This document shows positions 616-45,693 of a stretch of 54,842 nucleotides of DNA, piece by piece (position 1 is the stretch's first letter; the number at the start of each line of letters is the position of its first letter). Source of the stretch: Candidatus Enterousia sp. (lineage in GTDB: Bacteria; Pseudomonadota; Alphaproteobacteria; Rs-D84); the NCBI GenBank assembly GCA_045649345.1, contig JAZRPS010000007.1, positions 1-54,842 on the forward strand, given 5' to 3'. Made by a program: the position numbers and the translations under genes. The notes under the pieces were generated by a model that was not told the DNA's origin, made no database searches, and worked only from the letters and a program-made list of their open reading frames with translations.

Positions 616-648
616 ATGAAACAAGCAACAATAATTATTATTAAATAA
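616..648 (+). CDS. Putative ileS leader peptide MKQATIIIIK
   Basis: ATG AAA CAA GCA ACA ATA ATT ATT ATT AAA TAA: four consecutive Ile codons, ending about 70 nt upstream of the ileS start. Confidence 0.8.
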   Translation: MKQATIIIIK

Positions 649-651
649 AAG

Positions 652-697
652 GCAACTGCGCTTCTGCGGTGGCTGGGGCGCATGGGCGCCTTTTTTT
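652..697 (+). promoter_or_regulatory. ileS transcription attenuator (alternative hairpins plus U-tract)
   Basis: Terminator is GGCGC(677-681)-ATGG-GCGCC(686-690)-T7. A competing TGCGC(657-661):GCGCA(678-682) pairing would sequester its 5' arm. Confidence 0.75.
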
Positions 698-719
698 AAT
701 ATAAAAACAGGATAAAAAA

Positions 720-3700
720 ATGGCATATAAAAAAACAGATGCGCGTGCAGACTTTACCGCCTTGGAACAGGAAATGTTAACCAAGTGGGCAAACGAAGAT
801 ACTTTTCATAAATCATTGAAACAAACAAAACAGGGGCATCCTTTTTCGTTTTATGATGGGCCCCCATTTGCGAACGGTTTGCCACACTGGGGGCATTTGG
901 GTGTGACGGTGGTCAAAGACATGGTGTCGCGTTTCCAAACAATGAACGGACGGTTTGTGCGACGTGAACTGGGTTGGGATTGTCATGGGTTGCCTGCGGA
1001 AAATTCTGTTGAAAAAAAGCAAGGTCGTCGTGCCAAAGATATCGTTGCAAACGATGGTATTGCGGCATTCTGTGATATGTGCAGAACAGATGTTATGACA
1101 TATACAAACGAATGGAATCGTTTTATATCTCGTATGGGTCGTTGGGTTGATATTGGTGATAACTATGGTTACAGAACTATGGATAAAAATTATATGGAAT
1201 CAATGTTGTGGACGTTAAAGACATTGTATGACAAAGGATTGTTATATAAAGATTACAGTGTTAATCCATACGATTGGGTAAATGGTACAGTGGTATCTAA
1301 TTCCGAGGCATCACAAGACTATCGTGAAATTATTGATGATGCGTTAACTGTTTGGTTTGAACTGGAAAATGGTGACCGGGCGATTGCATGGACAACAACG
1401 CCATGGACACTGCCGGCAAATTCTGCATTGGCGGTAAATCCAAATATGACATATCTGCGTATGCAGGATAGTGATGGTGCCGTATACGTCATCGCAGAAA
1501 GTCGATTAAAGGCATATGAAAAACAATTTGCAAATGCAACAGAAATAGGTCGCATCAAGGGCTCTGATTTGGTTGGGTTGCATTACACACCATTGTTCCC
1601 ATATTATTCGAATGAATCTGAATTGTTATTTCAGGTAATCCCAGCAGATTATGTATCTGACGGCGATGGTACGGGTATCGTTCATATTGCGCCTGCCTAT
1701 GGTGCCGAAGACTTTTGGGCGGCGAAAAACATCGACCCAAAATTCCCAGTACTGTTAAACGTTGATACATATGGAAACTTTGATGAAACAGTAATCGATT
1801 TTGCTGGTGAAAATATTTTTGAAGCCACACCAAAGATAATAGATTGGTTAAAAACAAATGGTAAATTGGTTAAAAAAGAACAATATAAACACAGTTATCC
1901 ATTCGGTGACCGCAGTAAACAAAAACTGATACAACGCGCAACAGATTCATGGTATATCGATGTGCCGAAAATCAAAGATAAGCTGTTGGCAAATAACGCA
2001 AAAGTAAACTGGACATCTGCCGGTGAACGTTTCCGTAATTGGATTGAAAACGCACGCCCATGGTCAATTTCACGAAATCGTTTCTGGGGTATGCCATTGC
2101 CAATCTGGGAACGTAACGGTGAATACAAAGTTTTTGGTTCAATCGCAGAATTGGAAGAATTCTTTGGCGTGAAAATTGATGACCTGCATCGCCCAACACT
2201 GGATAAACTGACCAAGGACGGTTGGACACGCATAACAGATGTTCTGGATTGCTGGGTGGAAAGTGGTTCTATGCCATGGGCATCATTGCACTATCCATTT
2301 GAAAATGCAGAACGCTTTGCGGCGACTTTCCCGGCAGACTATATTATCGAAGGTCAAGACCAAACACGCGGTTGGTTCTATGCACTGATGGTGCTGGCAA
2401 CTGCCCTGTTTGATAAACCTGCGTTCAAGACAGTGTCGGTTAATGGTTTAATGGTTGATGAAAACAAAAAGAAATATTCAAAATCATTAAAAAACTATGT
2501 TGATCCTTCACAACAAATTGAACAATACGGTGCGGATGCGGTTCGTTTATTTATACTGGGGTCTAATTTTATGAAAACAGAACCTGTGCCAATTGATAAC
2601 GAAGGTAAAGTTTTCTTGGATTCCGGTAAAGTAATTCAAACACCATTATGGAATGCGTATCACTTCTTTACGTTGTATGCAAATGCAGGCAATGTCACTG
2701 CGCATGAAATCAGCAATCCAACGAACGTATTGGATAAATACATTTTGGCTGAATTAAATGTATTAACAGATGTGGTTAGAAATTCATTAAATGAATATAA
2801 ACCAGATGTTGCAATCAAAGAATTTGTTCGATTCTTGGACGTATTAAACAACTGGTATATTCGTCGTGGGCGTGCACGTTTCTGGGACGAAGAACAGGAT
2901 GCATTTGATACGCTGTATACGGTATTGGTGCGCTTTTGTCGCGTATTGGCACCATTCGCGCCATTTATCTCAGAATATATCTATACAAATTTAACAGGCG
3001 ATGAATCTGTGCACCTGACCACGTTCCCAGAATCAGAAAAAGTAGATGAAAAAATCGTTGATGACATGCGTCGTGTGCAATCAATTGTATCAACCGGCAA
3101 ACAGTTGCGCGAAGAATATAAATTGCGCAATCGTCTGCCATTGAATTCATTGACGGTCGCAGGCGCAAACATGCCCGAATACGCAGATATTATCAAAGAT
3201 GAACTGAACGTAAAATCAGTGAAATTCAATGAAACCTTTAACGACGTTGCAGATAGTTTTATATATCTGATTACACCAAAAATCGGCGCACGTTTGGGTG
3301 GCGCATTAAAGGAAATCATCCCATCGGTAAAGCGTGGCGATTATGAAATCGTGGGCGATAAATTAATTGCGTCTGGTCACGAATTAAATTCAGACGAATT
3401 TGAAAATCGTCTGACTGTAAAGCCGGGTGTGACGGGTGCGACCCTGCCTGATAATACGGCGGTTGTCGTACTGGATACAGATGTTAATTCAGACCTGATT
3501 GCCGAAGGTCTGGCGAACGATGCGTTGCGCTTTATCCAAGACACGCGCAAGGTGGCGGGGCTGGATGTGTCTGACCGTATTGTGCTGACATATTCGGCAG
3601 AACCTGCGTTGGCAATGGCGATTGAACAGCATAAACGTCGTATTATGCGCGATGCGTTGGTTGTTGAAATGGTTTGCGGTGACGGCGAATACACCAAGGA

Positions 3701-3743
3701 TATAGAAGGCTATGCATTAAGTATTTCTGTTAAAAAGGCATAA
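720..3743 (+). CDS. ileS: Isoleucyl-tRNA synthetase, type 2 (archaeal/eukaryote-like)
   Basis: FYDGPPFANGLPHWGH, GWDCHGLP, WTTTPWTLP, GTGIVH, WSISRNRFWG, EGQDQTRGWF and KYSKS motifs; long type-2 C-terminus without the type-1 zinc finger. Confidence 0.97.
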   Translation: MAYKKTDARADFTALEQEMLTKWANEDTFHKSLKQTKQGHPFSFYDGPPFANGLPHWGHLGVTVVKDMVSRFQTMNGRFVRRELGWDCHGLPAENSVEKKQGRRAKDIVANDGIAAFCDMCRTDVMTYTNEWNRFISRMGRWVDIGDNYGYRTMDKNYMESMLWTLKTLYDKGLLYKDYSVNPYDWVNGTVVSNSEASQDYREIIDDALTVWFELENGDRAIAWTTTPWTLPANSALAVNPNMTYLRMQDSDGAVYVIAESRLKAYEKQFANATEIGRIKGSDLVGLHYTPLFPYYSNESELLFQVIPADYVSDGDGTGIVHIAPAYGAEDFWAAKNIDPKFPVLLNVDTYGNFDETVIDFAGENIFEATPKIIDWLKTNGKLVKKEQYKHSYPFGDRSKQKLIQRATDSWYIDVPKIKDKLLANNAKVNWTSAGERFRNWIENARPWSISRNRFWGMPLPIWERNGEYKVFGSIAELEEFFGVKIDDLHRPTLDKLTKDGWTRITDVLDCWVESGSMPWASLHYPFENAERFAATFPADYIIEGQDQTRGWFYALMVLATALFDKPAFKTVSVNGLMVDENKKKYSKSLKNYVDPSQQIEQYGADAVRLFILGSNFMKTEPVPIDNEGKVFLDSGKVIQTPLWNAYHFFTLYANAGNVTAHEISNPTNVLDKYILAELNVLTDVVRNSLNEYKPDVAIKEFVRFLDVLNNWYIRRGRARFWDEEQDAFDTLYTVLVRFCRVLAPFAPFISEYIYTNLTGDESVHLTTFPESEKVDEKIVDDMRRVQSIVSTGKQLREEYKLRNRLPLNSLTVAGANMPEYADIIKDELNVKSVKFNETFNDVADSFIYLITPKIGARLGGALKEIIPSVKRGDYEIVGDKLIASGHELNSDEFENRLTVKPGVTGATLPDNTAVVVLDTDVNSDLIAEGLANDALRFIQDTRKVAGLDVSDRIVLTYSAEPALAMAIEQHKRRIMRDALVVEMVCGDGEYTKDIEGYALSISVKKA

Positions 3744-3753
3744 GGAGTAAGTT

Positions 3754-4023
3754 ATGGCAAAATATTATTGTGAAAAATATTTTTACCCAGAAAAATATAA
3801 CACATATAAATGCGAGTATAAATGCGAGCAAAACGAACAAAAGGTATGTTCGCGTGAATGCAATGAATCTAATTACTGTCCGCGCAAATTGCGTTTGGAT
3901 AAAGAACAGTTTGCAATGCTGGACAGTTTGCGCGTTGTAAAGAAACAAAATCTAAAAATCATGGAACAAAACAAAAAGATTATAGAAGAGTTGACATTAC
4001 AACGATTACAGAAACAAGAATAA
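3754..4023 (+). CDS. Small Cys/Tyr/Lys-rich hypothetical protein with a coiled-coil C-terminus
   Basis: SD aaggag upstream; it fills the gap between ileS and nth, and its stop overlaps the nth start (TAATG). Confidence 0.75.
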   Translation: MAKYYCEKYFYPEKYNTYKCEYKCEQNEQKVCSRECNESNYCPRKLRLDKEQFAMLDSLRVVKKQNLKIMEQNKKIIEELTLQRLQKQE

Positions 4024-4670
4024 TGACGCCGGCACAATATTTTGAAATGGTTCCGCCGACCGTTGATATGACGATACGGTCGGAACTGTTTCATACAAAC
4101 GAATTTAACTTTGCGGTGGCGGTGATTCTATCCGCCCAGGCAACAGATAAAAAAGTGAACGAGGTGACATCTGCCCTATTTTCTGTTGCACCCACGCCTG
4201 AAAAAATGTTGGCATTGGGATTGGACGGATTAAAAGAACATATCCGGGTCATTTCTTTCTTTAATAACAAGGCGAAAAATATTATCGCATTGTCGGAACG
4301 ATTACATGCCGAAAATATGACCGATAAATTCCCGACCAAATATCATAATCGCGATGAATTGATGAAATTGCCGGGCATCGGACAAAAGACTGCAAATGTT
4401 GTGTGCAATGTCCTGTGGGGTGCGCCAAATATCGGCGTGGATACGCATGTTTTCCGCAATGCACACAGATACGGTTGGGTCGATGACGCGGACAATACAC
4501 CCGAAAAAGTTGAATTAAAACTGTTGAAAAAAATTCCAAAAAAGTATCACGCAATTGTAAATCATGTAATGGTTTTACACGGTCGGTATGTGTGTACTGC
4601 ACTGCGACCAAAGTGTGATAAATGTCCTATTTCAAATTATTGTCCGTATAATAATAAATCTTTGCATTAA
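4023..4670 (+). CDS. nth: Endonuclease III
   Basis: ILSAQATD, HhH motif LPGIGQKTAN, VDTHVFR, and 4Fe-4S motif C-x6-C-x2-C-x5-C. Confidence 0.95.
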   Translation: MTPAQYFEMVPPTVDMTIRSELFHTNEFNFAVAVILSAQATDKKVNEVTSALFSVAPTPEKMLALGLDGLKEHIRVISFFNNKAKNIIALSERLHAENMTDKFPTKYHNRDELMKLPGIGQKTANVVCNVLWGAPNIGVDTHVFRNAHRYGWVDDADNTPEKVELKLLKKIPKKYHAIVNHVMVLHGRYVCTALRPKCDKCPISNYCPYNNKSLH

Positions 4671-4695
4671 ATATTTCTCTTCCGACCCATGAAAC

Positions 4696-4727
4696 AAAAA
4701 AACACCCCGCACGGGGGTATTTTTTTT
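4696..4727. terminator. Bidirectional intrinsic terminator (nth / tRNA)
   Basis: A-tract, ACCCC-gcac-GGGGGT stem, T-tract. Confidence 0.8.
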
Positions 4728-4732
4728 AGTTT

Positions 4733-4806
4733 TGGAGGCCTGGGTCGGGATCGAACCGGCATCCAGGGATTTTCAGTCCTCTGCATAACCACTCTGCCAC
4801 CAGGCC
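4733..4806 (-). tRNA. tRNA with tRNA-Cys scaffold but GAA (Phe) anticodon; CCA encoded
   Basis: GGCCUGG UG GCA GAGUGGUUA UGC A GAGGA CU-GAA-AA UCCCU GGAU GCCGG UUCGAUC CCGAC CCAGGCC U CCA. It is 74 nt with a perfect 7-bp acceptor stem and U73. Confidence 0.9.
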
Positions 4807-4902
4807 AAAACTTTGTGTCGTCATATTACGCAAAAAAAAATTGTATTTCAACATAAAAATAGTATAATTATTAACAAAGTTTATAAGAGAGAGTGGGATT
4901 CC

Positions 4903-6243
4903 ATGAAAAAAGTATCATTTTGGGCACTGTTTTTAATGCCTTGTTATGCATTTGCGTCGTCTGATGATTGTATGACACGAACGACTGTACCCTCAGAACG
5001 CATGACCTTGCCCCAGGTTATTGAATTGGGGTTATGTCGAAATCCCCAGACAACGGCATCTTATTTGGCATATGAATCCGCGCGTTTATCAAAAAATGCT
5101 AATTATGCGGATTATTTACCCAGTGTAAACGCATCTGCATCTGCATCATTACCATACAGAAACAAAGAATGGGGTGATTGGTCATATGGTGCATCATTGT
5201 CGGCATCTTATTTGATTTTTGATTTTGGTAAACGTCTGGCTGATTTGAATCAGTCTGCGGCCGCGTGGCGTGCAACTGGGTTTGATTATGATGAAACGGT
5301 TCAAAATTATATTTACAGTTTAATTGGTTCTTATTATGCCCTGTTGAACGCAGATGCAGATGTAAAGTCTGCGGAAATGTTGCGTACCGTGGCGCAAACG
5401 GCACGTGATACCGCCCAGAAAAAGTTCAAGGCCGGCGCTGTCGCCAAGGCAGATGTATTAAAGGCTGACACTACATTGGCCAGTCGTGATCTTGATTTAG
5501 AACGTGCGAAAAACAATCGTGAAATTGCCAAGGGTACATTGTTAAATAAATTATCGTTCCCAGCCAACCAGAATATTGAAATTGCAGACCTGCCGTCTGA
5601 AATTGGCGCGCCCCAGGAAACAAAGACGCTGGACGAATTGTTCGCCCAGGCGGAAAAAACACGCCCTGATTTATTGCGTGCAACTGCGAACAAGGATTCT
5701 GCGTGGCACAGAAGAAACAGTGTGTTTTTAAGTAATTTACCATCGATTTCTGCATCTGGTTCTGTATCTTGGAATGATACGCCGTCCGAAACATATGGTG
5801 CCGGTTCTGATAAAATCAGTGGCAGTATTGGTATCCGTGCATCTATGCCATTGTTTGCGGGGTTTGCGAACTTATACAATGCCCGTGCCGCCCAGGTAAA
5901 TTATGACCGTGCAATCGAACAGGAACGCGCTGCCCAGGATAATGCAACACTGGACGTGTTTACCGCATATCAGAATTACAAGACTGCCCAGACGGTATTA
6001 AAACAAACGGAAACATTGTTAAAATCTGCCACGGAATCAGAACGTGTGACCGCCGGTATGTACAAGGTTGGACGTGCAACAATGTTGGATTGGCAAACCG
6101 CACAATCTGAATTGGTATCTGCGGAAAAACAAAACAATGCCGCCAGATATGATTTGTTTACAAAACGTGCGGCTGTTGCATTGGCGGTTGGTGAAATAAA
6201 GGCAGAGTTAGAGGAGGGAAAACACCATGAAGAAAACAATTAA
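4903..6243 (+). CDS. TolC-family outer membrane efflux protein
   Basis: Signal peptide MKKVSFWALFLMPCYAFA; two OEP repeats (LIFDFGKR, MPLFAGF, YKVGRATMLD). Start moved to ATG 4903 after a purine-rich SD-like stretch. Confidence 0.9.
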   Translation: MKKVSFWALFLMPCYAFASSDDCMTRTTVPSERMTLPQVIELGLCRNPQTTASYLAYESARLSKNANYADYLPSVNASASASLPYRNKEWGDWSYGASLSASYLIFDFGKRLADLNQSAAAWRATGFDYDETVQNYIYSLIGSYYALLNADADVKSAEMLRTVAQTARDTAQKKFKAGAVAKADVLKADTTLASRDLDLERAKNNREIAKGTLLNKLSFPANQNIEIADLPSEIGAPQETKTLDELFAQAEKTRPDLLRATANKDSAWHRRNSVFLSNLPSISASGSVSWNDTPSETYGAGSDKISGSIGIRASMPLFAGFANLYNARAAQVNYDRAIEQERAAQDNATLDVFTAYQNYKTAQTVLKQTETLLKSATESERVTAGMYKVGRATMLDWQTAQSELVSAEKQNNAARYDLFTKRAAVALAVGEIKAELEEGKHHEENN

Positions 6244-7447: not shown

Positions 7448-7460
7448 TATAAAATGTAGA

Positions 7461-7502
7461 AAAATAAACCGTCAGGAAATTAAGCCTGACGGTTTATTTT
7501 TT
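7461..7502. terminator. Bidirectional terminator
   Basis: aaaataaaccgtcagg-aaattaag-cctgacggtttatttt, a perfect 16-bp inverted repeat between convergent genes. Confidence 0.85.
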
Positions 7503-7515
7503 ACAAAACGATGGA

Positions 7516-7815
7516 TTACATCGGTAATGGTACACCTGCTGTTGCGTCACCCATAACCTGGTCAATAATATCGTCTGCCTTTTTCTTGGCGTCGTTATAT
7601 GCCACCATTACGATTTCAGCAACCGCATCCGCACCACGTGATAAAACATCTGGACGGATTGTTAATTTTAACAAATCGTATTTACCAGACATGTCAACGA
7701 TACATGCACCATTGTCCGCAATGCCTTTGATAACTGTTTTTGCCAATTTATCTTGTGCGTCTGCAACCTTGTTCTGCAAGGCTGCTGCCTGTGCCATTAA
7801 TGATTCCATATCCAT
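7516..7815 (-). CDS. ybaB: YbaB/EbfC nucleoid-associated protein
   Basis: MESLMAQAAALQ..AQDKL..G.A.NG..V...G..L.I.P..L..AYNDA pattern; 99 aa; SD aggagg. Confidence 0.85.
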   Translation of the reverse strand: MDMESLMAQAAALQNKVADAQDKLAKTVIKGIADNGACIVDMSGKYDLLKLTIRPDVLSRGADAVAEIVMVAYNDAKKKADDIIDQVMGDATAGVPLPM

Positions 7816-7825
7816 TGTTAACCTC

Positions 7826-13112: not shown

Positions 13113-15353
13113 ATGGCAATAAAATTCAACTTTTTATCAGCATCGGGCAAGGGCAAAGGCCTGGGGATTTTTGATTCCACAAAATACAAGGAACACGAAC
13201 AGACCCCATTGGCGCGTGAATTTTGGTCGATACGCTGGACGATTATTATTTGGTTAATTGGCGCACTGATGTTCGCGATGGCATTCCCTGCCGAACAAAT
13301 ATGGCGTTATGGTTGGTCGCCGGCAACACGGCATTGGATTGGAATTTATTTATATCAAATGGTGACAACGTTGGGAATGTCCGTGGTGGCAGAAATACCT
13401 GCGTGGATAACACGCGCTGTTGCGCGTCCAGACTGGGCATGTATTGCGCCGCTGATTCCGATTATTGGGTATTTTTTTCTGTCTGATGCAACAATGACCG
13501 ATGAATTTAACCCACACAGCAAGGATAAATTCGAAGAAAAAACTGCACGCAAGGCGGATGTTGCAGATATTAAAAAAATGGGTGACGACCACAATAATAA
13601 AGAAGGTCTGTTTGGTGGTTTTATGATGGTTTTGGGGTATTTTAAAAGCAGACCCTTGAAAATGGACACATGTTTATCTGCATTGTTATTGGCGCCGGCT
13701 GGTGCCGGTAAAACCCAGGGTGTCGTGATTCCAACAATTGTTGGCTGTGACAATGTTTCTATGATTATAAACGACCCAAAACCTGAATTGTGTCACGATA
13801 CATCTGCGTATCGTGCAACGGTCGGACCGGTGTTTATATTAAACTGGGCGGCACGCGACGAACCAGAAAAAGGTATCTATTACCCGGCATGGAATCCGTT
13901 GTCACCAGAAAACCTGCCGGCAACCGAAGAAGAAAAAAGTACATATATCCAGGTTATTGTTAATACAATTATCGAAGAAAACGCCAAGGATCCACACTGG
14001 TCAAATACGGCGCGTGCGGCGTTGACTGGGTTTATCAACTTTATTGTGTCCAAGGTGGAACGTGCCAAGGCAAATGATTATTTCTATTCACGCCTGTCCA
14101 ACGGTACATTTGATGAACAAGACGCGGCGGTACTGATGGATTATTATATGACAATGTCATCAGACCCAAATGCGTATGCCGCAATGGCATTGTTGCAAAA
14201 AGGACAATTAAATATCAGCAATTATGTTCATGTCGGAACCTGGGCAGGTCTGCCAAAAGAATGGCACGGGGCCGAGGCATCAATACCAATGTTCTTGGCA
14301 TGGTATGTCGAAGGACAAATCAAAGTCGCCCAACAAATCGAAGAACGTAAACGCCAAGGCGACCAAATGGTTATGATGGCAGACCCGATGAAAGACTTCT
14401 TGAACGAGGCTGTAAATGAAGCCCAATTGTATTCGTATGACAGCGACGCGATTTCATCACTTATTAACCTGTCCAATACGCCGGACAAGGAACGCGGTTC
14501 TGTTATTTCAACAATGAATGCCGGATTAAATATTTTCCGTCACCCGGCGGTTAATAAGCATACACGTCATTCCGATTTACATTTTGGGGACCTGCGTGGC
14601 ATGGTTGACCCACGTGATGGCAAGATGAAGCCAACAACGGTATACCTGTCAATGAATGTGGCAGATGCCCCGGCGTTCCGCCCAATTACCAGTATGTTTG
14701 TTGAGTTGCTGTCAAATTTCTTGATTGCCAATAAGCCCGGTAATGTAAATCATGGACAGAAATTGGGACCGTTCCCAACGCTGTTCGTGTTGGACGAAAT
14801 GCCAACAATGAATAAGTTAGAGGCGGTTATCCAAGGTCCCGCCGTTGGTCGTGGACAAAAGGTATCATACCTGATTGTTGGTCAGGACATCAGCCAGATT
14901 GCAGAAAAATATGGTGACAAGGCGGCAGAAACCGTTATTGCCAACAGTGCGGCAAAAATCATCCTGCGTGTAAATGACCCTGCAACGGCACAACGCTTTA
15001 CAGATATGATTGGTAAAAAGAAAACCAAGAAAAAGGAAAAGGGTCCAGACGGTAAAGATACCGAAGTGACAAAAGAAGAAGACCTGTTCAGCCCAATGGA
15101 TTTGATGACACTGCCAATGGGTAAACAGATTATCGTGTATCAGGGACACTATAATCGCCCGATTGAGGCTGACGGTGAATGGCACTTCCTGCGCAAGACC
15201 AAGGTTCAAATCGAAATCAATGATAAAGTTAAAATGGGGGGTACAACACCAATTCCAGAATACCTGATACCACATCATCATCGCGCGTTAAAATATCCGG
15301 GCAATCCACGTACGTATGACCCAAAAACCATGGAAGTAAAAGAATTGGTATAA
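13113..15353 (+). CDS. virD4: Type IV secretion coupling protein (VirD4/TraG family)
   Basis: N-terminal TM segments, Walker A APAGAGKT followed by VVIPT, INDPKPE, WNPL, DPHW, Walker B FVLDEMP, VGRGQKV..QDISQI..KYG. Confidence 0.9.
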   Translation: MAIKFNFLSASGKGKGLGIFDSTKYKEHEQTPLAREFWSIRWTIIIWLIGALMFAMAFPAEQIWRYGWSPATRHWIGIYLYQMVTTLGMSVVAEIPAWITRAVARPDWACIAPLIPIIGYFFLSDATMTDEFNPHSKDKFEEKTARKADVADIKKMGDDHNNKEGLFGGFMMVLGYFKSRPLKMDTCLSALLLAPAGAGKTQGVVIPTIVGCDNVSMIINDPKPELCHDTSAYRATVGPVFILNWAARDEPEKGIYYPAWNPLSPENLPATEEEKSTYIQVIVNTIIEENAKDPHWSNTARAALTGFINFIVSKVERAKANDYFYSRLSNGTFDEQDAAVLMDYYMTMSSDPNAYAAMALLQKGQLNISNYVHVGTWAGLPKEWHGAEASIPMFLAWYVEGQIKVAQQIEERKRQGDQMVMMADPMKDFLNEAVNEAQLYSYDSDAISSLINLSNTPDKERGSVISTMNAGLNIFRHPAVNKHTRHSDLHFGDLRGMVDPRDGKMKPTTVYLSMNVADAPAFRPITSMFVELLSNFLIANKPGNVNHGQKLGPFPTLFVLDEMPTMNKLEAVIQGPAVGRGQKVSYLIVGQDISQIAEKYGDKAAETVIANSAAKIILRVNDPATAQRFTDMIGKKKTKKKEKGPDGKDTEVTKEEDLFSPMDLMTLPMGKQIIVYQGHYNRPIEADGEWHFLRKTKVQIEINDKVKMGGTTPIPEYLIPHHHRALKYPGNPRTYDPKTMEVKELV

Positions 15354-15465: not shown

Positions 15466-17454
15466 ATGGCAAAGAAATACCTGATTACATCTGCATTACC
15501 ATACGTGAACAATAACCTGCACATTGGGCATTTAATTGGTTGTTGGTTGCCGTCGGATGTGTATGCACGTTTTTGTCGCGCACGTGGACGTGATGTCTTG
15601 TTTGTATGTGGGTCTGATGAACACGGCACGGCCAGTGAAATTGGCGCCCTGAAAGAAGGTATACCTGTTGCAGAATATGTTGATAAATATCGTGCTGCGC
15701 ATGAACAGTCTGTTCGTGATTTTAATTTGTCTTTTGATACATATGGACGAACGCATACAAAATTACACGAACAATTAATTCAGAAATTGTTTGAACGCCT
15801 GCAAGAACAAAATATGTTGGTTGAAAAAACATCTGTTCAGCCGTATTCCGTCAAAGATGAAATGTTTTTGGCAGACCGATTTGTTATTGGAACATGTCCA
15901 AAATGTGGTCACGATGGTGCATATGGGAACGAGTGTGGAAAATGTGGCGCAACCCTGGAACCAGAACAGTTGATTAATCCGCACAGTGCGATTACGCCTG
16001 ATTCACCTGTGGAAATGCGTGAAACAAAACATATGTATTTCAAATCAAGCGAAATGCAAGACAAACTGCGTGAATGGATTAATTCGCGTGTTGGTTGGCC
16101 GAAAACCGCATTGGCAATCGCAAATAAATGGCTGGACGAAGGTCTGCGCGACAGTCCGATTACACGCGATTTAAAGTGGGGAATTCCAGTAAATAAGCCG
16201 GGTTATGAAAACAAGGTTTTCTATGTTTGGTTTGATGCGCCATGGGGCTATGTTTCTATTTCCCAGGCGGCAAATGAAAACTGGGCAGATTGGTGGCACG
16301 GTGGTGATGATGTTCACTATACCCAATTTATGGGCAAAGATAATATTTCATTTCATTCTATATTCTTTCCATCCCAAGAATTGGCGATGAATGACAACTG
16401 GAAAACAGTTGATGTGTTAAAGGGTATGAATTTTTTAAATATGAACGGCGCGAAAATATCTAAATCCACGGGCAATGGTGTTTTCTTGAACGACGCGGTT
16501 CAGGAATTGCCTGCTGATTACTGGCGTTATGCGTTAATCGCGTCTGCCCCAGAAACAGATGACACAGATTTTACCATTGAACGTTTCGCAGATATTGTGA
16601 ACAAAGACCTGAATGGTATGTTGGGGAACTTTGTGTCGCGTGTTTGCAAATTAACAGCCAAGAATTTTGGTAATAATGTACCTGCATCGGGTGCAAAAAA
16701 TCCAGAATTAGAATCACAAATTAACGAAAAATTGGCTGAATTGACACGTGCGCTGGACGCGTGCGAATTTCGCGCATCGATTGCGGCACTGCGCGGTCTG
16801 TACGCGATTGGAAATGAATATATGACACGTATGGAACCATGGGCATTGGTAAAGAATGGTGATATGACGACGGCGGGTGCGGTATTGAACGAATGTTTTC
16901 AGCTGATTGATTTGTTCGCACGTGTATCTGCGCCTGTTATTCCAGAAACTGCGACAAAAATGCAGAACATATTTAATCCAACGCACGACTTATCTTGGCC
17001 GACAGAATACGAACATCGTATAAAAGACGGCGACGAATTTACGGTTCCAGAAAACTTGTTTAATCGTATTGACGATGACAAGATTACGCAAATGACAGAA
17101 AAATATACCGTAAAAAAAGAAGACACGACACCAAAACCTGTTGTTGCAGAAATTGTAAGTGTTGAAAATCACCCTGCGCGTGAAAATTTGCATGTTTTAT
17201 CTGTAAACGTGGGCGGCGATGAAAACATTCAAATTGTATGTGGTGCGCCAAATGTACGCGTTGGGTTGCGTGGCGTTCTGGCCCCGGTTGGTTCAAAATT
17301 ACCAGGTATGAAAAAACCAATGGCACAACGCACCGTTGCCGGTGTTGAATCTTTTGGCATGATGTGCAGCGCATTAGAACTGGGGGTTGGCGCCGACGGT
17401 GATAATATCATCGAATTGGGTTCTGATGTCGAAATCGGTTCGGAATATAAATAA
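15466..17454 (+). CDS. metG: Methionyl-tRNA synthetase with a C-terminal PheT-B2/YtpR-like tRNA-binding OB fold
   Basis: ITSALPYVN..LHIGH, GSDEHG, CPKC..CGKC zinc knuckle, YVWFDA, KISKS. C-terminal domain IVCGAPN...GVESFGMMCS..ELG. Confidence 0.96.
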   Translation: MAKKYLITSALPYVNNNLHIGHLIGCWLPSDVYARFCRARGRDVLFVCGSDEHGTASEIGALKEGIPVAEYVDKYRAAHEQSVRDFNLSFDTYGRTHTKLHEQLIQKLFERLQEQNMLVEKTSVQPYSVKDEMFLADRFVIGTCPKCGHDGAYGNECGKCGATLEPEQLINPHSAITPDSPVEMRETKHMYFKSSEMQDKLREWINSRVGWPKTALAIANKWLDEGLRDSPITRDLKWGIPVNKPGYENKVFYVWFDAPWGYVSISQAANENWADWWHGGDDVHYTQFMGKDNISFHSIFFPSQELAMNDNWKTVDVLKGMNFLNMNGAKISKSTGNGVFLNDAVQELPADYWRYALIASAPETDDTDFTIERFADIVNKDLNGMLGNFVSRVCKLTAKNFGNNVPASGAKNPELESQINEKLAELTRALDACEFRASIAALRGLYAIGNEYMTRMEPWALVKNGDMTTAGAVLNECFQLIDLFARVSAPVIPETATKMQNIFNPTHDLSWPTEYEHRIKDGDEFTVPENLFNRIDDDKITQMTEKYTVKKEDTTPKPVVAEIVSVENHPARENLHVLSVNVGGDENIQIVCGAPNVRVGLRGVLAPVGSKLPGMKKPMAQRTVAGVESFGMMCSALELGVGADGDNIIELGSDVEIGSEYK

Positions 17455-38623: not shown

Positions 38624-38631
38624 AAATATGC

Positions 38632-38660
38632 AAAAACGCCGGCAAATGCCGGCGTTTTTT
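38632..38660. repeat. Palindromic terminator repeat copy (reverse orientation)
   Basis: aaaaacgccggcaaatgccggcgtttttt. Confidence 0.85.
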
Positions 38661-39669: not shown

Positions 39670-39735
39670 ATTTTTATATGTATCACAAAAAAACACATTT
39701 GTCAATACGTTTTGTCAAAAAATAAATATTAATAT

Positions 39736-39763
39736 AAAAACACCGGCATTTGCCGGTGTTTTT
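39736..39763. repeat. Palindromic terminator repeat copy
   Basis: aaaaacaccggcatttgccggtgttttt after pal. Confidence 0.85.
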
Positions 39764-39781
39764 GCACAATTTTTGCAACAA

Positions 39782-40201: not shown

Positions 40202-40278
40202 GAAAATACTCCCTTGAGTTTTTGTTGCTCGTGCTATATTGTACAATAAAAGGTTTGAAAAATCAAGGAAAAACACAA

Positions 40279-41061
40279 ATGTCTGATAATACATTGCGTG
40301 ATTTAGAATTGGCAGGTGTGCGTTGGGAATTGGCAGACATGCCGATTGGTACCGTACACAAGGAAGTGATTCCTGTGGCAGATACGCCTGTGCGTCGTGA
40401 CGCATCATCGATCGTCGCAGAAATCGGGCGCGCCGCGACAACAGTGGTGCCACCAATTGCGCCAACCCAGACGATGTCAATTGATACCGTTCGTGCCATG
40501 GCATCGCGTCCAGTCGATATGCCCACATTATGTCGAATGATTGGTGAATTTAATCATCCTTTGCGTGCCAGTGCAACTAATACTGTACTGCCACACGTCG
40601 CGCCGGGGCAGGGCGGTCTGGTTATATTGGCGGACATTCCGGGTTCTGATGATGACGCAACAGGAAACATTTTAACCGGTGCGTCTGGCGAATTAATGGA
40701 TAAAATGTTGGCTGCCATTGGCTTATCACGTGACAATGTTTCAATTGTTCCTATTTTATTTTGGCGCACCCCTGGGGGGCGTACGCCATCGCGTTCTGAA
40801 TTGGATTTGGCGCGTCCATTCGTTGACAGGGCAATCGAATTATTAAATCCACGTGTTATTTTGACGCTGGGTACATTGCCTGCGACAGAAATGGCAGGTG
40901 TAAATTTAGGTCGCGCCCATGGTGTTCCTGTGACAACAGATTCTGGTATGACAATAATGCCAATATTTCATCCGAATTATCTGTTGTTAAAGCCTGCGGC
41001 AAAACGCGACGTTTGGAACGCACTACAAAATGTACAAAATATCTTGAAAAGTGCCGAATAA
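40279..41061 (+). CDS. Uracil-DNA glycosylase family 4-like protein (divergent active site)
   Basis: G.L.DKML.AIGL.R, WR.PG.R.P, LG, P.FHPNYLL..P..KR..W; motif A is altered to ADIPG. Confidence 0.8.
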   Translation: MSDNTLRDLELAGVRWELADMPIGTVHKEVIPVADTPVRRDASSIVAEIGRAATTVVPPIAPTQTMSIDTVRAMASRPVDMPTLCRMIGEFNHPLRASATNTVLPHVAPGQGGLVILADIPGSDDDATGNILTGASGELMDKMLAAIGLSRDNVSIVPILFWRTPGGRTPSRSELDLARPFVDRAIELLNPRVILTLGTLPATEMAGVNLGRAHGVPVTTDSGMTIMPIFHPNYLLLKPAAKRDVWNALQNVQNILKSAE

Positions 41062-41100
41062 TAGTCAATAATTCGCATATGTTTAATAAAGGAGCGTACA

Positions 41101-41649
41101 ATTAAACCTGCATTTAATCGTGATAATCGTCGCGACACTGGTCCGCGTATGAATGAAAAAATATTTGCTAAATCTGTTCAGGTAATCAGTTCTGATGGTC
41201 AGAATTTGGGTGTTATGCCAACGTCCCAGGCATTGCAGATGGCGATGGACATGGATATGGATTTGGTTGAAATCAACGCCAATGGCGCAACGCCAATTAC
41301 CAAGATAATGGATTATGGCAAGTTCAAATATGAACAGAAAAAACGCGCGTCAGAGGCACGAAAAAAACAAAAATCCATCGAAATGAAAGAAGTTTGGGTT
41401 AAGCCTTTTATCGAGGAAAACGACCTGAATATAAAAATGAAAAAGGCTTTGGAGTTTTTGGCAGAAGGCAACAAGGTAAAAATTTCTGTCATGACCAAGG
41501 GTAATAAAAAGGTTTTGGCACGTGGCAAAGATGCTGTTCCAGAATTATTTACACGTATTGTTGAAATTATTGGCGATAATGGTAATTTGGAATCAAAATC
41601 CAAACCGGACGAACGAACAAAATCAATTATCATTGCGCCTGTAAAATAA
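41101..41649 (+). CDS. infC: Translation initiation factor IF-3 with ATT start codon
   Basis: SD AAAGGAG then an in-frame ATT at 41101 (48 nt upstream of the track's ATG); DLVEI, KIMDYGKFKYEQKK, G.KVK. Confidence 0.93.
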   Translation: MKPAFNRDNRRDTGPRMNEKIFAKSVQVISSDGQNLGVMPTSQALQMAMDMDMDLVEINANGATPITKIMDYGKFKYEQKKRASEARKKQKSIEMKEVWVKPFIEENDLNIKMKKALEFLAEGNKVKISVMTKGNKKVLARGKDAVPELFTRIVEIIGDNGNLESKSKPDERTKSIIIAPVK

Positions 41650-41663
41650 ATAAAAAACAGAAT

Positions 41664-41690
41664 AAAAAACGCCCATTTGGGCGTTATTTT
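41664..41690. terminator. Bidirectional terminator (infC/typA)
   Basis: aaaaacgccc-attt-gggcgttattt. Confidence 0.7.
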
Positions 41691-43521
41691 ATTGTTCTGT
41701 GTTTTTGCGTGTCTTTTTGCGTATGTTGCTGTCTAATTCTTTTTTACGCAAACGAATTGTATTTGGTGTGACCTCTACCAATTCGTCGTCCAAAATATAA
41801 GACAACGCTTCTTCTAATGATATGCGACGTGGTGGTGCCAAGAACAGTTTTTCATCAGCCGTCACTGAACGCATATTTGTTAATTCTTTCCCCTTAACAG
41901 GGTTGACTTCCAAATCGTTTTCTTTACTGTGTTCGCCGATAATCATACCAGAATAAACTTCGGTCTGGGGGTCAACAAACAGTGTTCCGCGTGGTTGCAG
42001 ATTGAACAATGCATATGTTGCAGTGTTTCCTTTTTCCATCGATACCAGCACGCCTGGTCGATATTGCTGAATTGGACCGCGGTACAGGTCGTATTTATCA
42101 AATACGCGGTTCATAATGCCTGTGCCACGTGTATCTGTACGGAATTCAGACAGATAACCAATCAATCCGCGTGATGGCGCAGAAAACACGATACGTGTTT
42201 TGCCGGCACCAGATGCCTTCATTTCTGTGATTGTTGCCTTGCGTTTAGTCATTTTTTCAATAACAACACCGCTGAATTCGTCATCAACGTCAATAACAAC
42301 ATCTTCGATTGGTTCCAACTTGTTGCCGTTTTCGTCTTCGTGCATAACAACACGTGGTCGTGACACAGACAATTCAAAGCCTTCACGACGCATTGTTTCG
42401 ATTAAGATACCCAGTTGTAATTCCCCACGACCAGAAACTTCAAACGCTTCGTTATTTTCACTTTGTTCAACGCGCAGTGCGATATTTGTCTCTGCTTCTT
42501 TGAACAGGCGTTCGCCAATCATGCGTGACGTTAATTTTTTGCCAGATTTGCCTGCCAATGGCGATGTGTTAACAAAGAATGTCATCGTCAGGGTTGGTGG
42601 GTCAATTAGCATTGCAGGGATTGGTTCTGTGACCTCTGGCGCACACAGGGTGTCCGCCACGGTTGCCTTGGAAAACCCTGCGACAACAACAATGTCGCCT
42701 GCAGATGCACTGTCGCGCGAAACTTTTTCAACGCCACGGTGTTCAATAATCTTGGTGATTTTTGCATTTTCAATAAATTCACCGTTGCGATTGATTGCCT
42801 TAACGGACTGACCAACTTTTACGGTTCCAGATTCGATTTTCCCGGTCAGTATTCGACCAACGTATGGATCTGCTTCCAGTGTGGTTGCCAGCATTGTAAA
42901 CGGTGCGTCTAATTGACAGCGGCTGCCATTACAATCAGGTGCCGGGACATGGTCAACAATTAACTGGAACAGTGGTGTTAAATCTTTGTGTTCATCGTTC
43001 AAATCGCGTACTGCCCAGCCATCACGCCCCACAGAATATAGGTATGGGAAATCCAGCTGTGAATCAGTCGCACCCAGTTTATCAAACAAATCAAATGTTT
43101 CGGATAAAACCTCATCAGGGCGCGCGTCTGCGCGGTCAACTTTGTTAATGCAAACAATTGGACGCAGTCCCAACTTTAATGCTTTACTTAATACAAACTT
43201 TGTTTGGGGCAGGGGACCTTCGGCACTGTCAACCAGCAATACAACCCCGTCAACCATGGATAAAATACGTTCCACTTCGCCACCAAAGTCCGCGTGACCC
43301 GGTGTGTCAACGATATTGATTTTATAATCACCCCATTGAATAGATGTTGGTTTTGCAGAAATCGTAATTCCGCGTTCGCGTTCGATGTCACCACTGTCCA
43401 TAACACGTTCGTCAACGCGTTCATTTTCGCGGAAGGTTCCTGCCTGTTTCAGCATATTGTCAACCAGTGTTGTCTTTCCATGGTCAACGTGCGCAATAAT
43501 TGCAATGTTGCGAATTTTCAT
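41689..43521 (-). CDS. typA: Translational GTPase TypA/BipA
   Basis: RNIAIIAHVDHGKTTLVD, ERERGITI, DTPGHADFGGEVER, GRGELQL, DDELVEVTP..IRLRK. Confidence 0.98.
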   Translation of the reverse strand: MKIRNIAIIAHVDHGKTTLVDNMLKQAGTFRENERVDERVMDSGDIERERGITISAKPTSIQWGDYKINIVDTPGHADFGGEVERILSMVDGVVLLVDSAEGPLPQTKFVLSKALKLGLRPIVCINKVDRADARPDEVLSETFDLFDKLGATDSQLDFPYLYSVGRDGWAVRDLNDEHKDLTPLFQLIVDHVPAPDCNGSRCQLDAPFTMLATTLEADPYVGRILTGKIESGTVKVGQSVKAINRNGEFIENAKITKIIEHRGVEKVSRDSASAGDIVVVAGFSKATVADTLCAPEVTEPIPAMLIDPPTLTMTFFVNTSPLAGKSGKKLTSRMIGERLFKEAETNIALRVEQSENNEAFEVSGRGELQLGILIETMRREGFELSVSRPRVVMHEDENGNKLEPIEDVVIDVDDEFSGVVIEKMTKRKATITEMKASGAGKTRIVFSAPSRGLIGYLSEFRTDTRGTGIMNRVFDKYDLYRGPIQQYRPGVLVSMEKGNTATYALFNLQPRGTLFVDPQTEVYSGMIIGEHSKENDLEVNPVKGKELTNMRSVTADEKLFLAPPRRISLEEALSYILDDELVEVTPNTIRLRKKELDSNIRKKTRKNTEQ

Positions 43522-43603
43522 GATTTTTGCCTCAGGTTTTTGTTAAATCGGACACAGGGTATACCTAAAAATATGAATTTTCAACATTTTTATATAAATA
43601 ATA

Positions 43604-43633
43604 TTGACATTTGTTGGATTTTGTCTATATAAT
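43604..43633 (+). promoter_or_regulatory. Near-consensus sigma70 promoter of the orphan gene at 43668
   Basis: TTGACA-18-TATAAT. Confidence 0.6.
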
Positions 43634-43667
43634 AAGGTGTGATGAATGAAAATAAAAGGAATTAGAT

Positions 43668-44219
43668 ATGCCAACAGAATATACAAAAAAAGAGATTTTA
43701 GATGCTATAAATATAGGTATGGCAGACTATTTGGAAATAGCGCGTATTGGTCTGCGTAGTCACTGGAAAGGTTTAAGTCAGTCTGAAAAATGGGCTGCCG
43801 GTCGTGCGCTGGTGGTTTTGGCTGATGTCAAGAAAAATCCAGCAAAATATTTTTCTCGTTCCACAACTTATGATGCATGGAAGGGGCGTGCAAGCGCGTA
43901 TGCAAAAGAAAAGAATTTGCGTTCTTCTTCATATGCGTATTACATTGTTCCTGACCCAACAAATGTCGTTTGGAATCAGGTTGCGCCTGCGTTCATATAT
44001 AATGCCGAACATGGTAAAAAATTTTATAAGTTTTGCCAAATGGTTCAAAAATGGGAATATGCCCGTACGGCGCATGCATACGCCGAAGATGGCGTTGCTG
44101 CCTTGTATGGGTACGATATTGTTAATATGACAAGGGTATCACATAGGTATGTGGGTTTGAAAAAAACAAACCCAATGCTTCGTCCAATCAAAGAAATGTT
44201 TCATTCATTTCAAAAATAA
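43668..44219 (+). CDS. Hypothetical protein (orphan)
   Basis: 183-aa ORF with SD aaagga, its own promoter and a downstream terminator. Confidence 0.8.
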   Translation: MPTEYTKKEILDAINIGMADYLEIARIGLRSHWKGLSQSEKWAAGRALVVLADVKKNPAKYFSRSTTYDAWKGRASAYAKEKNLRSSSYAYYIVPDPTNVVWNQVAPAFIYNAEHGKKFYKFCQMVQKWEYARTAHAYAEDGVAALYGYDIVNMTRVSHRYVGLKKTNPMLRPIKEMFHSFQK

Positions 44220-44247
44220 AAAATCCCCTGTCCAAGGGGATTTTTTT
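44217..44247. terminator. Bidirectional terminator
   Basis: aaaaatcccct-gtcca-aggggattttttt. Confidence 0.8.
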
Positions 44248-44269
44248 GATTTGTGTTAGTGATTATCTG

Positions 44270-45547
44270 TTAATGCTTTCCGCCGATTTTTGTACGTCCC
44301 CCCATCAGTGGTTGTAATTTCTTTGGAATATTTACAGAACCATCTGGGTTTTGGTGGTTTTCAATTACCGGTACAATTGCGCGTGGCAGGGCGATGCCCG
44401 TATTATTCAGGGTCGCACAGAATTGCATATTGCCGTCGTGGTCGCGATAGCGTGTATTTGTACGACGCGCCTGGAATTGACCAATCGACGAACAAGACCC
44501 CAGTTCGCGATATTTGCCTTCGCTTGGGAACCATGCTTCGACATCGTGCATTTTTACCTTGTTAAATCCCATGTCGCCGGTGCATGCCTGGATAACACGA
44601 TATGGCAATTCCAGGTCTTCCATAACTTCACACAAATTGTTTAACAGATGTTCATGCATTTCATTAGATTGTTCTGGGGTACAGTATATATATTGTTCAA
44701 CCTTGTTAAACTGATGTATACGAACGATTCCGCGCGTGTCGCGACCGGCAGCGCCGGCTTCTTTGCGAAAGCATGGTGAATACCCTGCATATTTGATTGG
44801 CAAATCTTTTTCGTTTAATACTTCATCACTGTGCAGTGAATTTAAAATGATTTCTGCGGTACCGGCCAAACATCTGTCTGTATCGGTCAGCATAAACACA
44901 TCGTTATTCATAACAGCTGGATCAGAACCCATAAAATGTCCTGCGTTAAATATTGTTTGTGGCTTTGTGATAGACGGACAGTTTACAAACGTAAATCCCT
45001 TGGACATCAGTTTTTGCAGAACATATGTCTGTATTGCCAGTTCCAGTTCCGCCGCTTCGCCAAACAGGGCATATGTACGTGTGCCACAGATTGACGCGAT
45101 TTTTTCAGGTCTGTACCAATTGTTCATTTCCAGCAAATCCCACTGCGCACGTGGTGTAAAGTCAAATTCGCGCGGTGTGCCGACGCGACGAACTTCTACA
45201 TTTTCTGTGTCATCACGTCCAATTGGTGAATCTGCGCTGGGGATTTGTGGTACGCGATGCAGCAAATCGGACAGTTGTTCTTCTTTTTCTGCCAATTCTG
45301 CCATGTCTGCGGCAATTTCATTCGCAATTTCTTTGGATTTTGCAATCAGTGGTGCCTTGTCCGTGGCGGTTGGAATTTCGCGTGTGATTTTATTTTTTTC
45401 TGCAGTTTTGCTTTGTGTGATTGTTTTCAGTTCACGCACACGTTTATCCAGATTAAGTATTTCATCTGTATTGTCTGCGATTCCTTTTAGTTCGCATGCG
45501 CGCTTAACTGCGTCTGGGTTTTCACGAATAAATTTTATATCCAGCAT
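44270..45547 (-). CDS. serS: Seryl-tRNA synthetase
   Basis: MLDIKFIRENP coiled-coil arm, LAGTAE, motif 2 CFRKEAG..G.DTRGI.R.HQF.KVE, motif 3 TLNNT.IA.PR, ENHQ..DG. Confidence 0.97.
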   Translation of the reverse strand: MLDIKFIRENPDAVKRACELKGIADNTDEILNLDKRVRELKTITQSKTAEKNKITREIPTATDKAPLIAKSKEIANEIAADMAELAEKEEQLSDLLHRVPQIPSADSPIGRDDTENVEVRRVGTPREFDFTPRAQWDLLEMNNWYRPEKIASICGTRTYALFGEAAELELAIQTYVLQKLMSKGFTFVNCPSITKPQTIFNAGHFMGSDPAVMNNDVFMLTDTDRCLAGTAEIILNSLHSDEVLNEKDLPIKYAGYSPCFRKEAGAAGRDTRGIVRIHQFNKVEQYIYCTPEQSNEMHEHLLNNLCEVMEDLELPYRVIQACTGDMGFNKVKMHDVEAWFPSEGKYRELGSCSSIGQFQARRTNTRYRDHDGNMQFCATLNNTGIALPRAIVPVIENHQNPDGSVNIPKKLQPLMGGRTKIGGKH

Positions 45548-45639
45548 TTTATATTCCCTTATGTTTATATGATTATGCCTTATGTTATAACTGTGCGATT
45601 AAATTCGCAATTAATAAAATTGAAAAAGTATACGATAAA

Positions 45640-45693
45640 TTATTCCCCCAACGGGGATGAAGAACGACTAAAAAATGTAAAATTTACTTTCAT
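45640..45693 (-). CDS. Putative serS leader peptide MKVNFTFFSRSSSPLGE
   Basis: ATG AAA GTA AAT TTT ACA TTT TTT AGT CGT TCT TCA TCC CCG TTG GGG GAA TAA. It starts 9 nt after TTGAAT-17-TATAAT and ends 92 nt upstream of serS. Confidence 0.72.
   Translation of the reverse strand: MKVNFTFFSRSSSPLGE

Follow-up and report, generated by a model that had tools for sequence, protein, structure and literature searches.

Five of the 20 aminoacyl-tRNA synthetase (aaRS) genes found in the genome of a Candidatus Enterousia (Alphaproteobacteria, order Rs-D84), namely ileS, serS, thrS, hisS and cysS, are preceded by a short open reading frame (ORF) that encodes a cluster of the amino acid cognate to the enzyme. 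We think it probable that these leader ORFs are sensed by the ribosome and control their own synthetase gene, a shortage of the charged tRNA giving more read-through into the gene. Two of the five leaders, those of ileS and serS, lie in the stretch of DNA analysed here (the window), which is the 54,842-nucleotide contig C7 of a 914-kb (0.91-Mb) genome, estimated to be 95.9% complete and held in 25 contigs. The window has three aaRS genes, ileS, metG and serS, to which family searches add none. An initial annotation of the window had drawn attention to the ileS and serS leaders, and had proposed that the lineage may regulate many synthetases in this way, as a functional counterpart of the T-box regulon. 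In the portion available of a published description, Enterousia is assigned to the uncultured order Rs-D84, with genomes of less than 1 Mb and without amino-acid biosynthesis pathways (PMC12306168).

The aaRS genes were located by Pfam family searches of the genome and named by NCBIfam equivalogs, and all short ORFs upstream of them were then listed. Related loci came from a draw of 30 genomes, of which 18 belong to the same genus and 12 to five other families of Rs-D84. The serS gene was also examined in the 80 best relatives from named public assemblies, which are gut and rumen metagenome-assembled genomes labelled Candidatus Enterousia or 'Alphaproteobacteria bacterium' and whose SerRS proteins are 83-99% identical.

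The ileS leader has the most complete set of regulatory elements. Its ORF, MKQATIIIIK followed by a stop, occupies positions 616..648 of the plus strand (ATG 616, stop 646-648), ahead of ileS itself (720..3743, +), and its Ile codons, ATA ATT ATT ATT, are at 631-642. Downstream of the ORF, two helices would compete for one segment. The first, a predicted antiterminator, pairs its 5' arm (segment 2, CTGCGCTTC, 656..664, +) with 674-682 (TGGGGCGCA), and is found both in the minimum-free-energy fold and by RNAalifold, which picks this helix from 18 aligned ileS leaders. The second, a predicted intrinsic terminator recognized by a terminator scan (675..697, +), has a stem-loop at 675-692 and a run of seven T at 691-697, and its 5' arm doubles as the 3' segment of the antiterminator. 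The region folds better than shuffled sequences (z = -2.97). Over the 18 sequences, 84% of the cells of the terminator helix are paired, compared with 46-70% when the 3' partner is slid. The antiterminator preserves one change on both sides (column pair 60/87), and in one relative (L018) a base of the shared segment has changed jointly with both of its alternative partners.

This is the classical four-segment geometry, and the mechanism predicted from it is canonical attenuation. A ribosome covers about 12-13 nt downstream of its A-site codon. Held with an Ile codon (631-642) in the A site, it would protect the RNA to about 643-655, so that segment 2 would stay free and the antiterminator would form; pairing of segments 2 and 3 would exclude the terminator at 675-697. 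A ribosome that has moved on to the stop codon (646-648) would reach to about 658-660 and cover the start of segment 2, allowing the terminator to form. The leader is present in 18/18 same-genus loci, the window's own counted. Its N-terminus is variable across these loci and the ending, (I)3-5-K/R-stop, is conserved, the relatives reading MKQTTIIIIK, MNKNTIIIK, MGTDAIIIIIR, MKKLNGIIIIK and others. Outside the genus, one of 11 loci has an Ile-rich leader, which is of a different, compact kind (L019, MFQINQEIIFRIPVWGN); two of the loci from other families (L027, L028) have almost no upstream sequence.

The other four leaders are compact, with one hairpin each. The serS leader, MKVNFTFFSRSSSPLGE followed by a stop, lies at 45640..45693 of the minus strand (ATG 45693, stop 45642-45640), upstream of serS (44270..45547, -). 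A lenient terminator scan finds a terminator-like hairpin, TCCCC-GTT-GGGGGA (45644..45657, -), inside the end of the ORF and followed by AATAATTTAT, and the last two Ser codons, TCA TCC, are in or adjoin its 5' arm. The remaining leaders emerged from the upstream short-ORF listing: MKMFKSFFTTTTTTPLGV before thrS (C20:5144-6877), MKNKMFIFVELHHAHVGEY, ending in ..LHHAHVGEY, before hisS (C18:74631-75932), and MTIRFINFYCCR, ending in ..FYCCR, before cysS (C8:20404-21822). In thrS, serS and hisS the cognate codons run directly into a short GC hairpin and the stop comes one or two codons on; at thrS and hisS of the window genome the hairpins are ACCCC-TTT-GGGGGT and CGCCC-ATGT-GGGCG. In cysS the hairpin begins about 12 nt after the stop, which is about 21 nt after the last Cys codon.

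The positions and the cognate content of the two window leaders are as the initial annotation had given them, and so is the absence of a leader at metG (15466..17454, +), a useful negative example: its locus in the window has no cognate upstream ORF (uORF), the sole upstream short ORF being the preceding gene's terminator. Both window leaders also start with MK, as had been described, although this start is not general, since relatives begin with MN, MT, MI or MH.

Conservation differs from leader to leader. The thrS leader is found in all 17 same-genus loci that have upstream sequence and in 4/12 loci of other families (L160, L161, L162, L166). The hisS leader is in 14/16 same-genus loci and 0/6 others, and the cysS leader in 14/19 (one of them MKFLVMNFCCCCC) and 0/11; cysS leaders end in CC, CCC or CCCCC. 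The serS leader is found in 57 of the 80 best Enterousia relatives, in 6/18 same-genus loci of the species draw and in 3/11 loci of other families (L368, L370, L375). The first two counts indicate that within the genus the serS leader is a trait confined to a sub-clade.

Several features of the alignments bear on whether the leaders are translated. Residues at the N-terminus have diverged, but frame, stop codon and cognate run persist, and codons change synonymously, which argues for translation. In thrS the three codons adjacent to the hairpin specify Thr in 17/17 leaders, with ACT, ACA, ACG and ACC all in use. In serS, the codon at position -4 from the hairpin arm is Ser from both the AGT and the TCN families. 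These patterns point to selection at the codon or amino-acid level in the thrS and serS leaders. If the ORFs were untranslated, the codon runs would be accidents of AT-rich intergenic DNA, or parts of a tRNA-binding RNA comparable to a T-box specifier. Such a reading might draw on the T-box-like leaders that the genome does carry at aspS, and on the Ile codons of the ileS leader, which are nucleotide-invariant and can pair with the region after the terminator. It is nevertheless extremely improbable, because ATG, frame and stop are kept across species with frame-preserving indels, and the cognate codons vary synonymously, including a switch between Ser AGY and UCN codons that are read by different tRNA anticodons. 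Runs of three to seven codons also exceed the single codon that a specifier needs. No Rfam family, T-box or other, matches the leaders at gathering thresholds in the window, or at E <=0.1 in 17 aaRS upstream regions.

Chance is likewise rejected by shuffling the amino-acid labels of the genes. A gene was scored as enriched when any six successive residues encoded by an upstream ATG-uORF included three or more cognate ones. By this measure 4/20 aaRS genes are enriched, against a shuffle mean of 0.51, and 11 of 20000 shuffles reach four. The most enriched residue of the leader is the cognate one in ileS (four Ile), thrS (six Thr), serS (four Ser) and hisS (three His), and the cysS leader ends in CC. 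The positions of promoters were also compared across the genome. A promoter with its -10 box ending 5-10 nt ahead of the start codon precedes 14 of 500 intergenic ATG-uORFs; the serS, cysS, hisS and thrS leaders are four of the 14, while aaRS genes make up 20 of 859 crudely called genes. The other ten, one of which is at hisS, were rejected as leaders: their top residue is present at most three times with no run longer than two, and for most of them the gene is no more than about 45 nt away. A loose filter for residue-rich tails passes 93 of the 500, and those not at aaRS genes look like noise. No convincing leader was found among these 500 uORFs in front of a non-aaRS gene. The initial view that two cognate matches in one window were unlikely to be coincidental is borne out by these counts: three further synthetase genes have cognate leaders, and the enrichment lies above the label-shuffle background.

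The extension of that view to many synthetases holds in part. All five leaders are conserved in the genus, but they account for 5/20 aaRS genes. No cognate leader is present upstream of the other fifteen, valS, leuS, metG, glyS, proS, gltX, argS, trpS, both tyrS, lysS, pheS, alaS and both aspS. Of these, proS, gltX and argS are placed directly behind other genes, and the upstream regions of valS, leuS, metG, glyS, trpS, alaS, pheS, lysS and one tyrS are short and contain no cognate ORF. Upstream of the tyrS on C22 there are just the terminator of the neighbouring gene and the gene's own promoter. The second tyrS has a leader (C17:9190-9345, L121) with two interlocked hairpins, one with a 13-bp stem and the other with a 9-bp stem followed by six T, and this leader has no Tyr-rich ORF and no Rfam match. 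The lysS uORF, MKCNLKRFR, is not Lys-rich. Among relatives, no Val-rich leader is found at valS in 17 usable genus loci, and no convincing Met-rich uORF at metG in 28 loci with usable upstream sequence, apart from an odd M-rich uORF in L323. Leu-rich uORFs at leuS (L294, L307, L309, L314) are too weak to call in the AT-rich background.

The compact leaders are best explained by a simpler version of the same principle. Each of the five leaders would lie at, or a few bases from, the start of a transcript initiated about 100-150 nt ahead of the aaRS gene. With charged tRNA in short supply, a ribosome on the leader would slow at the cognate codons, and the point at which it stops would decide whether the terminator hairpin forms and thus how many transcripts reach the synthetase gene. 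In serS, thrS and hisS the one hairpin is GC-rich and terminator-like, and the last cognate codons are within its 5' arm or directly next to it; a ribosome held there would keep the hairpin open. By directly occluding a weak terminator, the stalled ribosome would then raise read-through when charged tRNA is scarce.

The placement of the codons fits occlusion. Counted from the 5' arm of the hairpin, cognate codons of the compact leaders concentrate at positions 0 to -5, near enough for a ribosome stalled with its A site on such a codon to reach into the arm. In serS, positions 0 and -1 are Ser in 57/57 leaders, -2 in 34/57 and -4 in 47/57. In hisS, the hairpin-proximal His codons are conserved in 14/14 and 12/14 leaders. 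Directly upstream of the cognate run, Phe codons are strongly conserved in the serS, thrS, hisS and cysS leaders (e.g. at 45670-45681 of the window); in serS leaders, position -6 is Phe in 54/57 and position -5 in 42/57.

The occlusion model has several points to its disadvantage, which we take together. No alternative pairing that could serve as an antiterminator was found in the serS, thrS, hisS and cysS leaders, and their tails are only moderately U-rich, as is AATAATTTAT at serS. The whole serS leader folds no better than shuffled sequences (z = -0.03), and it is missing from 12/18 genus genomes of the species draw. The thrS hairpin is invariant and so offers no covariation, and the hisS hairpin has just two pairs with changes on both sides. 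The cysS hairpin would be too far downstream for a ribosome stalled at the Cys codons to touch it. The most general difficulty is that, with the stop behind the hairpin, a tightly coupled ribosome would block the hairpin also when the amino acid is plentiful. The direction of regulation is therefore not readable from the sequence, and for these four genes we infer both the one-hairpin design and the direction given here.

The same difficulty is the starting point for a reversed logic, as at pyrBI, in which a ribosome following the polymerase closely blocks the hairpin, an early stall lets it form, and shortage lowers transcription from the upstream promoter. With the stop behind or inside the hairpin, the ribosome cannot finish and leave before the polymerase has passed the termination point. 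If translation starts leaderless at the extreme 5' end, coupling would tend to be tight, and a stall at the first codons of the six-codon Thr run would leave the hairpin free. However, the most conserved cognate codons are those in or next to the 5' arm (17/17 in thrS, 57/57 in serS, 14/14 and 12/14 in hisS), which is the best place for blocking the hairpin and the worst for the reversal. Moreover, ileS in the same genomes is canonical, and positive feedback on charging would be maladaptive; to our knowledge, all aaRS-specific controls are homeostatic. Reversal is accordingly given little weight, and we consider it very unlikely.

A further alternative keeps the same sensor ORFs in thrS, serS, hisS and cysS and changes what they act on. 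The output might be Rho-dependent termination, prevented by a stalled ribosome covering the leader RNA as at tna, or it might be translation, the aaRS ribosome-binding site being hidden by structure as in the mycobacterial Cys short ORFs. The weak U tracts and the absence of an antiterminator in the compact leaders are in its favour, as is the cysS hairpin lying beyond the reach of a ribosome stalled on Cys codons. The genome has rho, and the runs of Thr, Ser and His codons contain much C and little G. A steady-state mechanism would also avoid the timing problem of a single hairpin. For the mycobacterial precedent, the part of the report available describes leaderless short ORFs (bioRxiv 10.1101/834739). 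The specifics of the two variants fit less well. The spacer between leader and gene, about 80-95 nt, is A/U-rich and would make a poor Rho loading site. Duplexes between leader and ribosome-binding site are no better than those of shuffled sequences (observed and shuffled, in kcal/mol: thrS -7.7 and -7.5, hisS -7.5 and -6.9, cysS -7.2 and -7.3, serS -8.5 and -7.6), and the predicted pairing of Shine-Dalgarno sequence and leader ranges from 0 to 0.86 among orthologues, which leaves sequestration by the leader after the mycobacterial model unsupported. The stem of the compact hairpins, moreover, has the CCCC-N3-4-GGGG core of the genome's ordinary terminators. We regard an output other than intrinsic termination as unlikely, yet the strongest of the competing explanations. 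The intrinsic terminators of this genome are stereotyped, AAAAATCCCCC-N3-4-GGGGGATTTTTT, often bidirectional and very numerous (e.g. at 4705-4730, 46732-46755 and 53703-53727 of the window).

Most leaders have a sigma-70-like promoter close by. Its -10 box ends 4-10 nt ahead of the start codon in 17/18 thrS, 14/14 hisS, 8/14 cysS and 54/57 serS leaders. In the window, the serS leader promoter P1, TTGAAT-17-TATAAT (45703..45731, -), was found by scan with 10/12 positions matching and ends 9 nt before the ATG. The putative P1 of the ileS leader, TTGTAT (580-585)-17-TATCCT (603-608) (580..608, +), was read by eye; it ends 7 nt before the ATG, matches at 7/12 positions and is below the threshold of the promoter scan. 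A TTGATT/TTGTAT-17-TATNNN pair stands 7 nt before the ATG in the printed contexts of most ileS loci that are not preceded by a tRNA gene. The two window leaders had been called promoter-proximal from the outset, and the scan bears this out for serS while ileS depends on reading by eye. Neither ATG has a Shine-Dalgarno sequence at a usable distance, in agreement with the earlier observation.

The spacing from promoter to ATG suggests leaderless or near-leaderless mRNAs, as had been proposed, and such mRNAs are plausible. The term does not suit every relative, since in some loci the leader follows a tRNA gene by about 10-40 nt instead of a promoter (ileS in L007, L008, L010 and L012; cysS in L198, L200, L206 and L207). 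In those loci tRNA processing might create a near-leaderless 5' end.

The promoters supply two of the weaker links in the proposed control, and the search for transcripts a third. The strict scan gives the P1 geometry in just 5/18 genus loci of ileS, whose promoter is thus weak. When positions 300-1500 of the window were compared with sequencing runs, the 24 matches listed were all Logan contigs, with a best word share of 0.49 and none from RNA. In addition, promoter-like elements recur between leader and gene. At thrS, TTGCGN-17-TATAAT is conserved in 15/18 leaders (L142-L159), and its -35 part doubles as an arm of a small, co-varying hairpin. At serS in the window, the sequence at 45584..45610 (-), between leader and gene, shows another small hairpin (TGCGA..TCGCA) and what may be a second promoter, P2 (TTGCGA, about 15 nt, TATAAC); P2-like promoters score in 33/57 serS leaders. 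The equivalents at serS and cysS are weaker than that of thrS, and hisS has a conserved TGATATAAT in the same place. These second, apparently constitutive promoters may give basal expression. If they are promoters, the leader would control only the extra transcription initiated upstream of it, and much aaRS expression may bypass the leader, as the conserved thrS element suggests in particular.

Leader peptides are not the only candidate control of aaRS genes in this genome. It has only two intergenic GGTGGNACC motifs, one before the bacterial-type aspS (C11) and the other before an archaeal-type, non-discriminating aspS (C13), and each of the 20 aspS loci searched in the genus has the motif. 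Scored with the Rfam T-box model, the C11 leader reaches 22 bits (for its antiterminator part) and the C13 leader 15 bits, against a curated cut-off of 93 bits; the aspS leaders of three sister-family genomes reach 41-46 bits over the full model, which is also under the cut-off. The T-box-like leaders, at C11 ~7480-7661 (L123, L225) and C13 ~14144-14540 (L125, L255), both outside the window, have the antiterminator bulge TGGCACC and a conserved GAC in the presumed specifier region, which is AAC in two species (L229, L243). The archaeal-type AspRS itself (C13:12827-14143), which exists beside the bacterial AspRS, is found in 4/19 same-genus genomes, the window's own included, and in 2/12 others (31 genomes searched). 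By contrast, the ileS, serS, thrS, hisS and cysS leaders have no match to the T-box covariance model (RF00230) and no conserved antiterminator bulge GGUGGNACC. The comparison with the T-box regulon made at first is sound as to physiological logic, but the leader peptides do not stand in for missing T-boxes: they coexist with T-box-like control and do not replace it.

The compact design recurs in sister families, for Ile (L019), Val (L280), Thr (L160-162, L166) and Ser (L368, L370, L375). The valS leader of a sister-family genome (G026, locus L280) is Val-rich, MTHSYTVFVVVNVVA, and has the same promoter spacing, a hairpin with the stop in its loop and a second promoter-like element after it, which indicates that, outside the genus, the design serves other amino acids as well. 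The hairpin loop also contains the stop codon in three sister-family thrS leaders. The thrS and serS leaders resemble each other (MKMFKSFF-TTTTTT-PLGV and MKVNFTFF-SRSSS-PLGE) and share the same hairpin; this likeness, together with the use of the plan for Ile, Val and His in sister lineages, makes a common origin of the cassette possible. More speculatively, Rs-D84 may have evolved a modular and re-programmable aaRS 'ribulon' cassette, retargetable by a change of the codon run much as a T-box is by its specifier. In such a cassette a promoter and a leaderless ATG would be followed by a few Phe-rich codons, a specifier run, a CCCC..GGGG hairpin holding the last specifiers, and a stop, all placed upstream of the ordinary promoter of each gene. 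We hold this proposal tentatively, as a possibility with the odds somewhat against it.

Leader-peptide control of single aaRS genes is known. E. coli pheST is the aaRS example of classical leader-peptide attenuation, and in the part of a comparative study available it is named as a gamma-proteobacterial case, with further attenuators predicted for trpS and leuS in Streptomyces (PMC1262725). A His leader peptide has been predicted before a hisS paralogue and hisZ in bacilli, in what is available of a second study (PMC2965389). Like the leaders described here, those of the trp, his and pheA operons and of pheST combine a short ORF of cognate codons with a terminator (here a predicted one) before the gene, and ileS also has a predicted, mutually exclusive antiterminator. 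Unlike the classical cases, at least five aaRS genes of one 0.9-Mb genome are concerned here, with no biosynthetic operon; the leader ATG is at the predicted transcript start and without a Shine-Dalgarno sequence; and four of the five leaders are single-hairpin, with no antiterminator and with the regulatory codons in the 5' arm. The Streptomyces and bacilli predictions are closer in that they, too, are comparative-genomic cases of cognate leader peptides and terminators before single aaRS genes. As far as those sources go, however, they concern one gene, or two, in each genome of Actinobacteria or Firmicutes, with classical hairpin pairs, and none is on ileS, thrS, serS or cysS or from Alphaproteobacteria.

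Other systems share parts of the design. The E. coli pyrBI and pyrE attenuators have a single terminator hairpin in the leader ORF or at its end; they sense nucleotide supply through polymerase pausing, and read-through needs close coupling. There as here, the position of the ribosome relative to the polymerase would decide the fate of the hairpin, but a cognate run abutting the hairpin suggests that amino acids are sensed. The mycobacterial 'Cys ribulon', in the part of its description available, is a ribosome-defined regulon of leaderless polycysteine short ORFs acting on translation (bioRxiv 10.1101/834739). It resembles the present case in having leaderless short ORFs with a cognate tract as independent ribosome sensors and no protein regulator. 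On the same partial account it senses one amino acid and targets Cys metabolic operons, whereas here several amino acids would be sensed, each for its own synthetase, and here a terminator-like hairpin follows the tract and no conserved pairing between leader and ribosome-binding site was found. The Firmicutes T-box regulon has the same physiological logic, each aaRS gene answering individually to how far its own tRNA is charged, by way of a conditional terminator in the 5' leader, but a T-box binds the uncharged tRNA directly and needs no translation, and the five leaders here are without T-box features. A literature search found no leader peptides for ileS, thrS, serS or cysS and no leader-peptide regulon of multiple aaRS genes; its coverage was incomplete and a prior description is possible. 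The compact, multi-aaRS set thus appears new.

The two synthetases of the window that have leaders are themselves of unusual type, as had been noted at first. IleRS (isoleucine-tRNA ligase, 1007 aa; TIGR00392, 771 bits) is of type 2, with PDB matches of 556-691 bits to eukaryote-like and type-2 enzymes compared with 221-301 bits to type 1. SerRS (serine-tRNA ligase, 425 aa; TIGR00414, 423 bits) carries ATLNNTGIALPR, and its best solved match, the Thermus thermophilus SerRS (1ser), has the TLNNT..A.PR motif too, so that the motif is present but shared with the Thermus enzyme. The unusual types are real, but no link to the regulation is seen. Elsewhere in the window, a tRNA gene (Rfam, 51 bits) lies at 4736-4806 (-), between an endonuclease III gene and the next ORF.

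Gene-specific control of aaRS genes is known mainly from the T-boxes of Gram-positive bacteria and from a few isolated cases in E. coli, each with a mechanism of its own. At least five synthetases, each with a cognate leader peptide, would be a second general solution, based on the ribosome and not on a tRNA-binding RNA. In a lineage described as having no amino-acid biosynthesis pathways, charging capacity may be among the few things that can be adjusted when supply drops. The compact design, with its apparently leaderless mRNA, offers a simple and testable system for studying how the position of a ribosome becomes a decision about transcription, and, should the cassette proposal hold, it would be the smallest known amino-acid-sensing attenuator, made of one hairpin and working beside T-boxes in an amino-acid-auxotrophic gut symbiont. 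Such leaders are easily missed in annotation, and the patterns described here could help to find them across Rs-D84 and in other reduced genomes.

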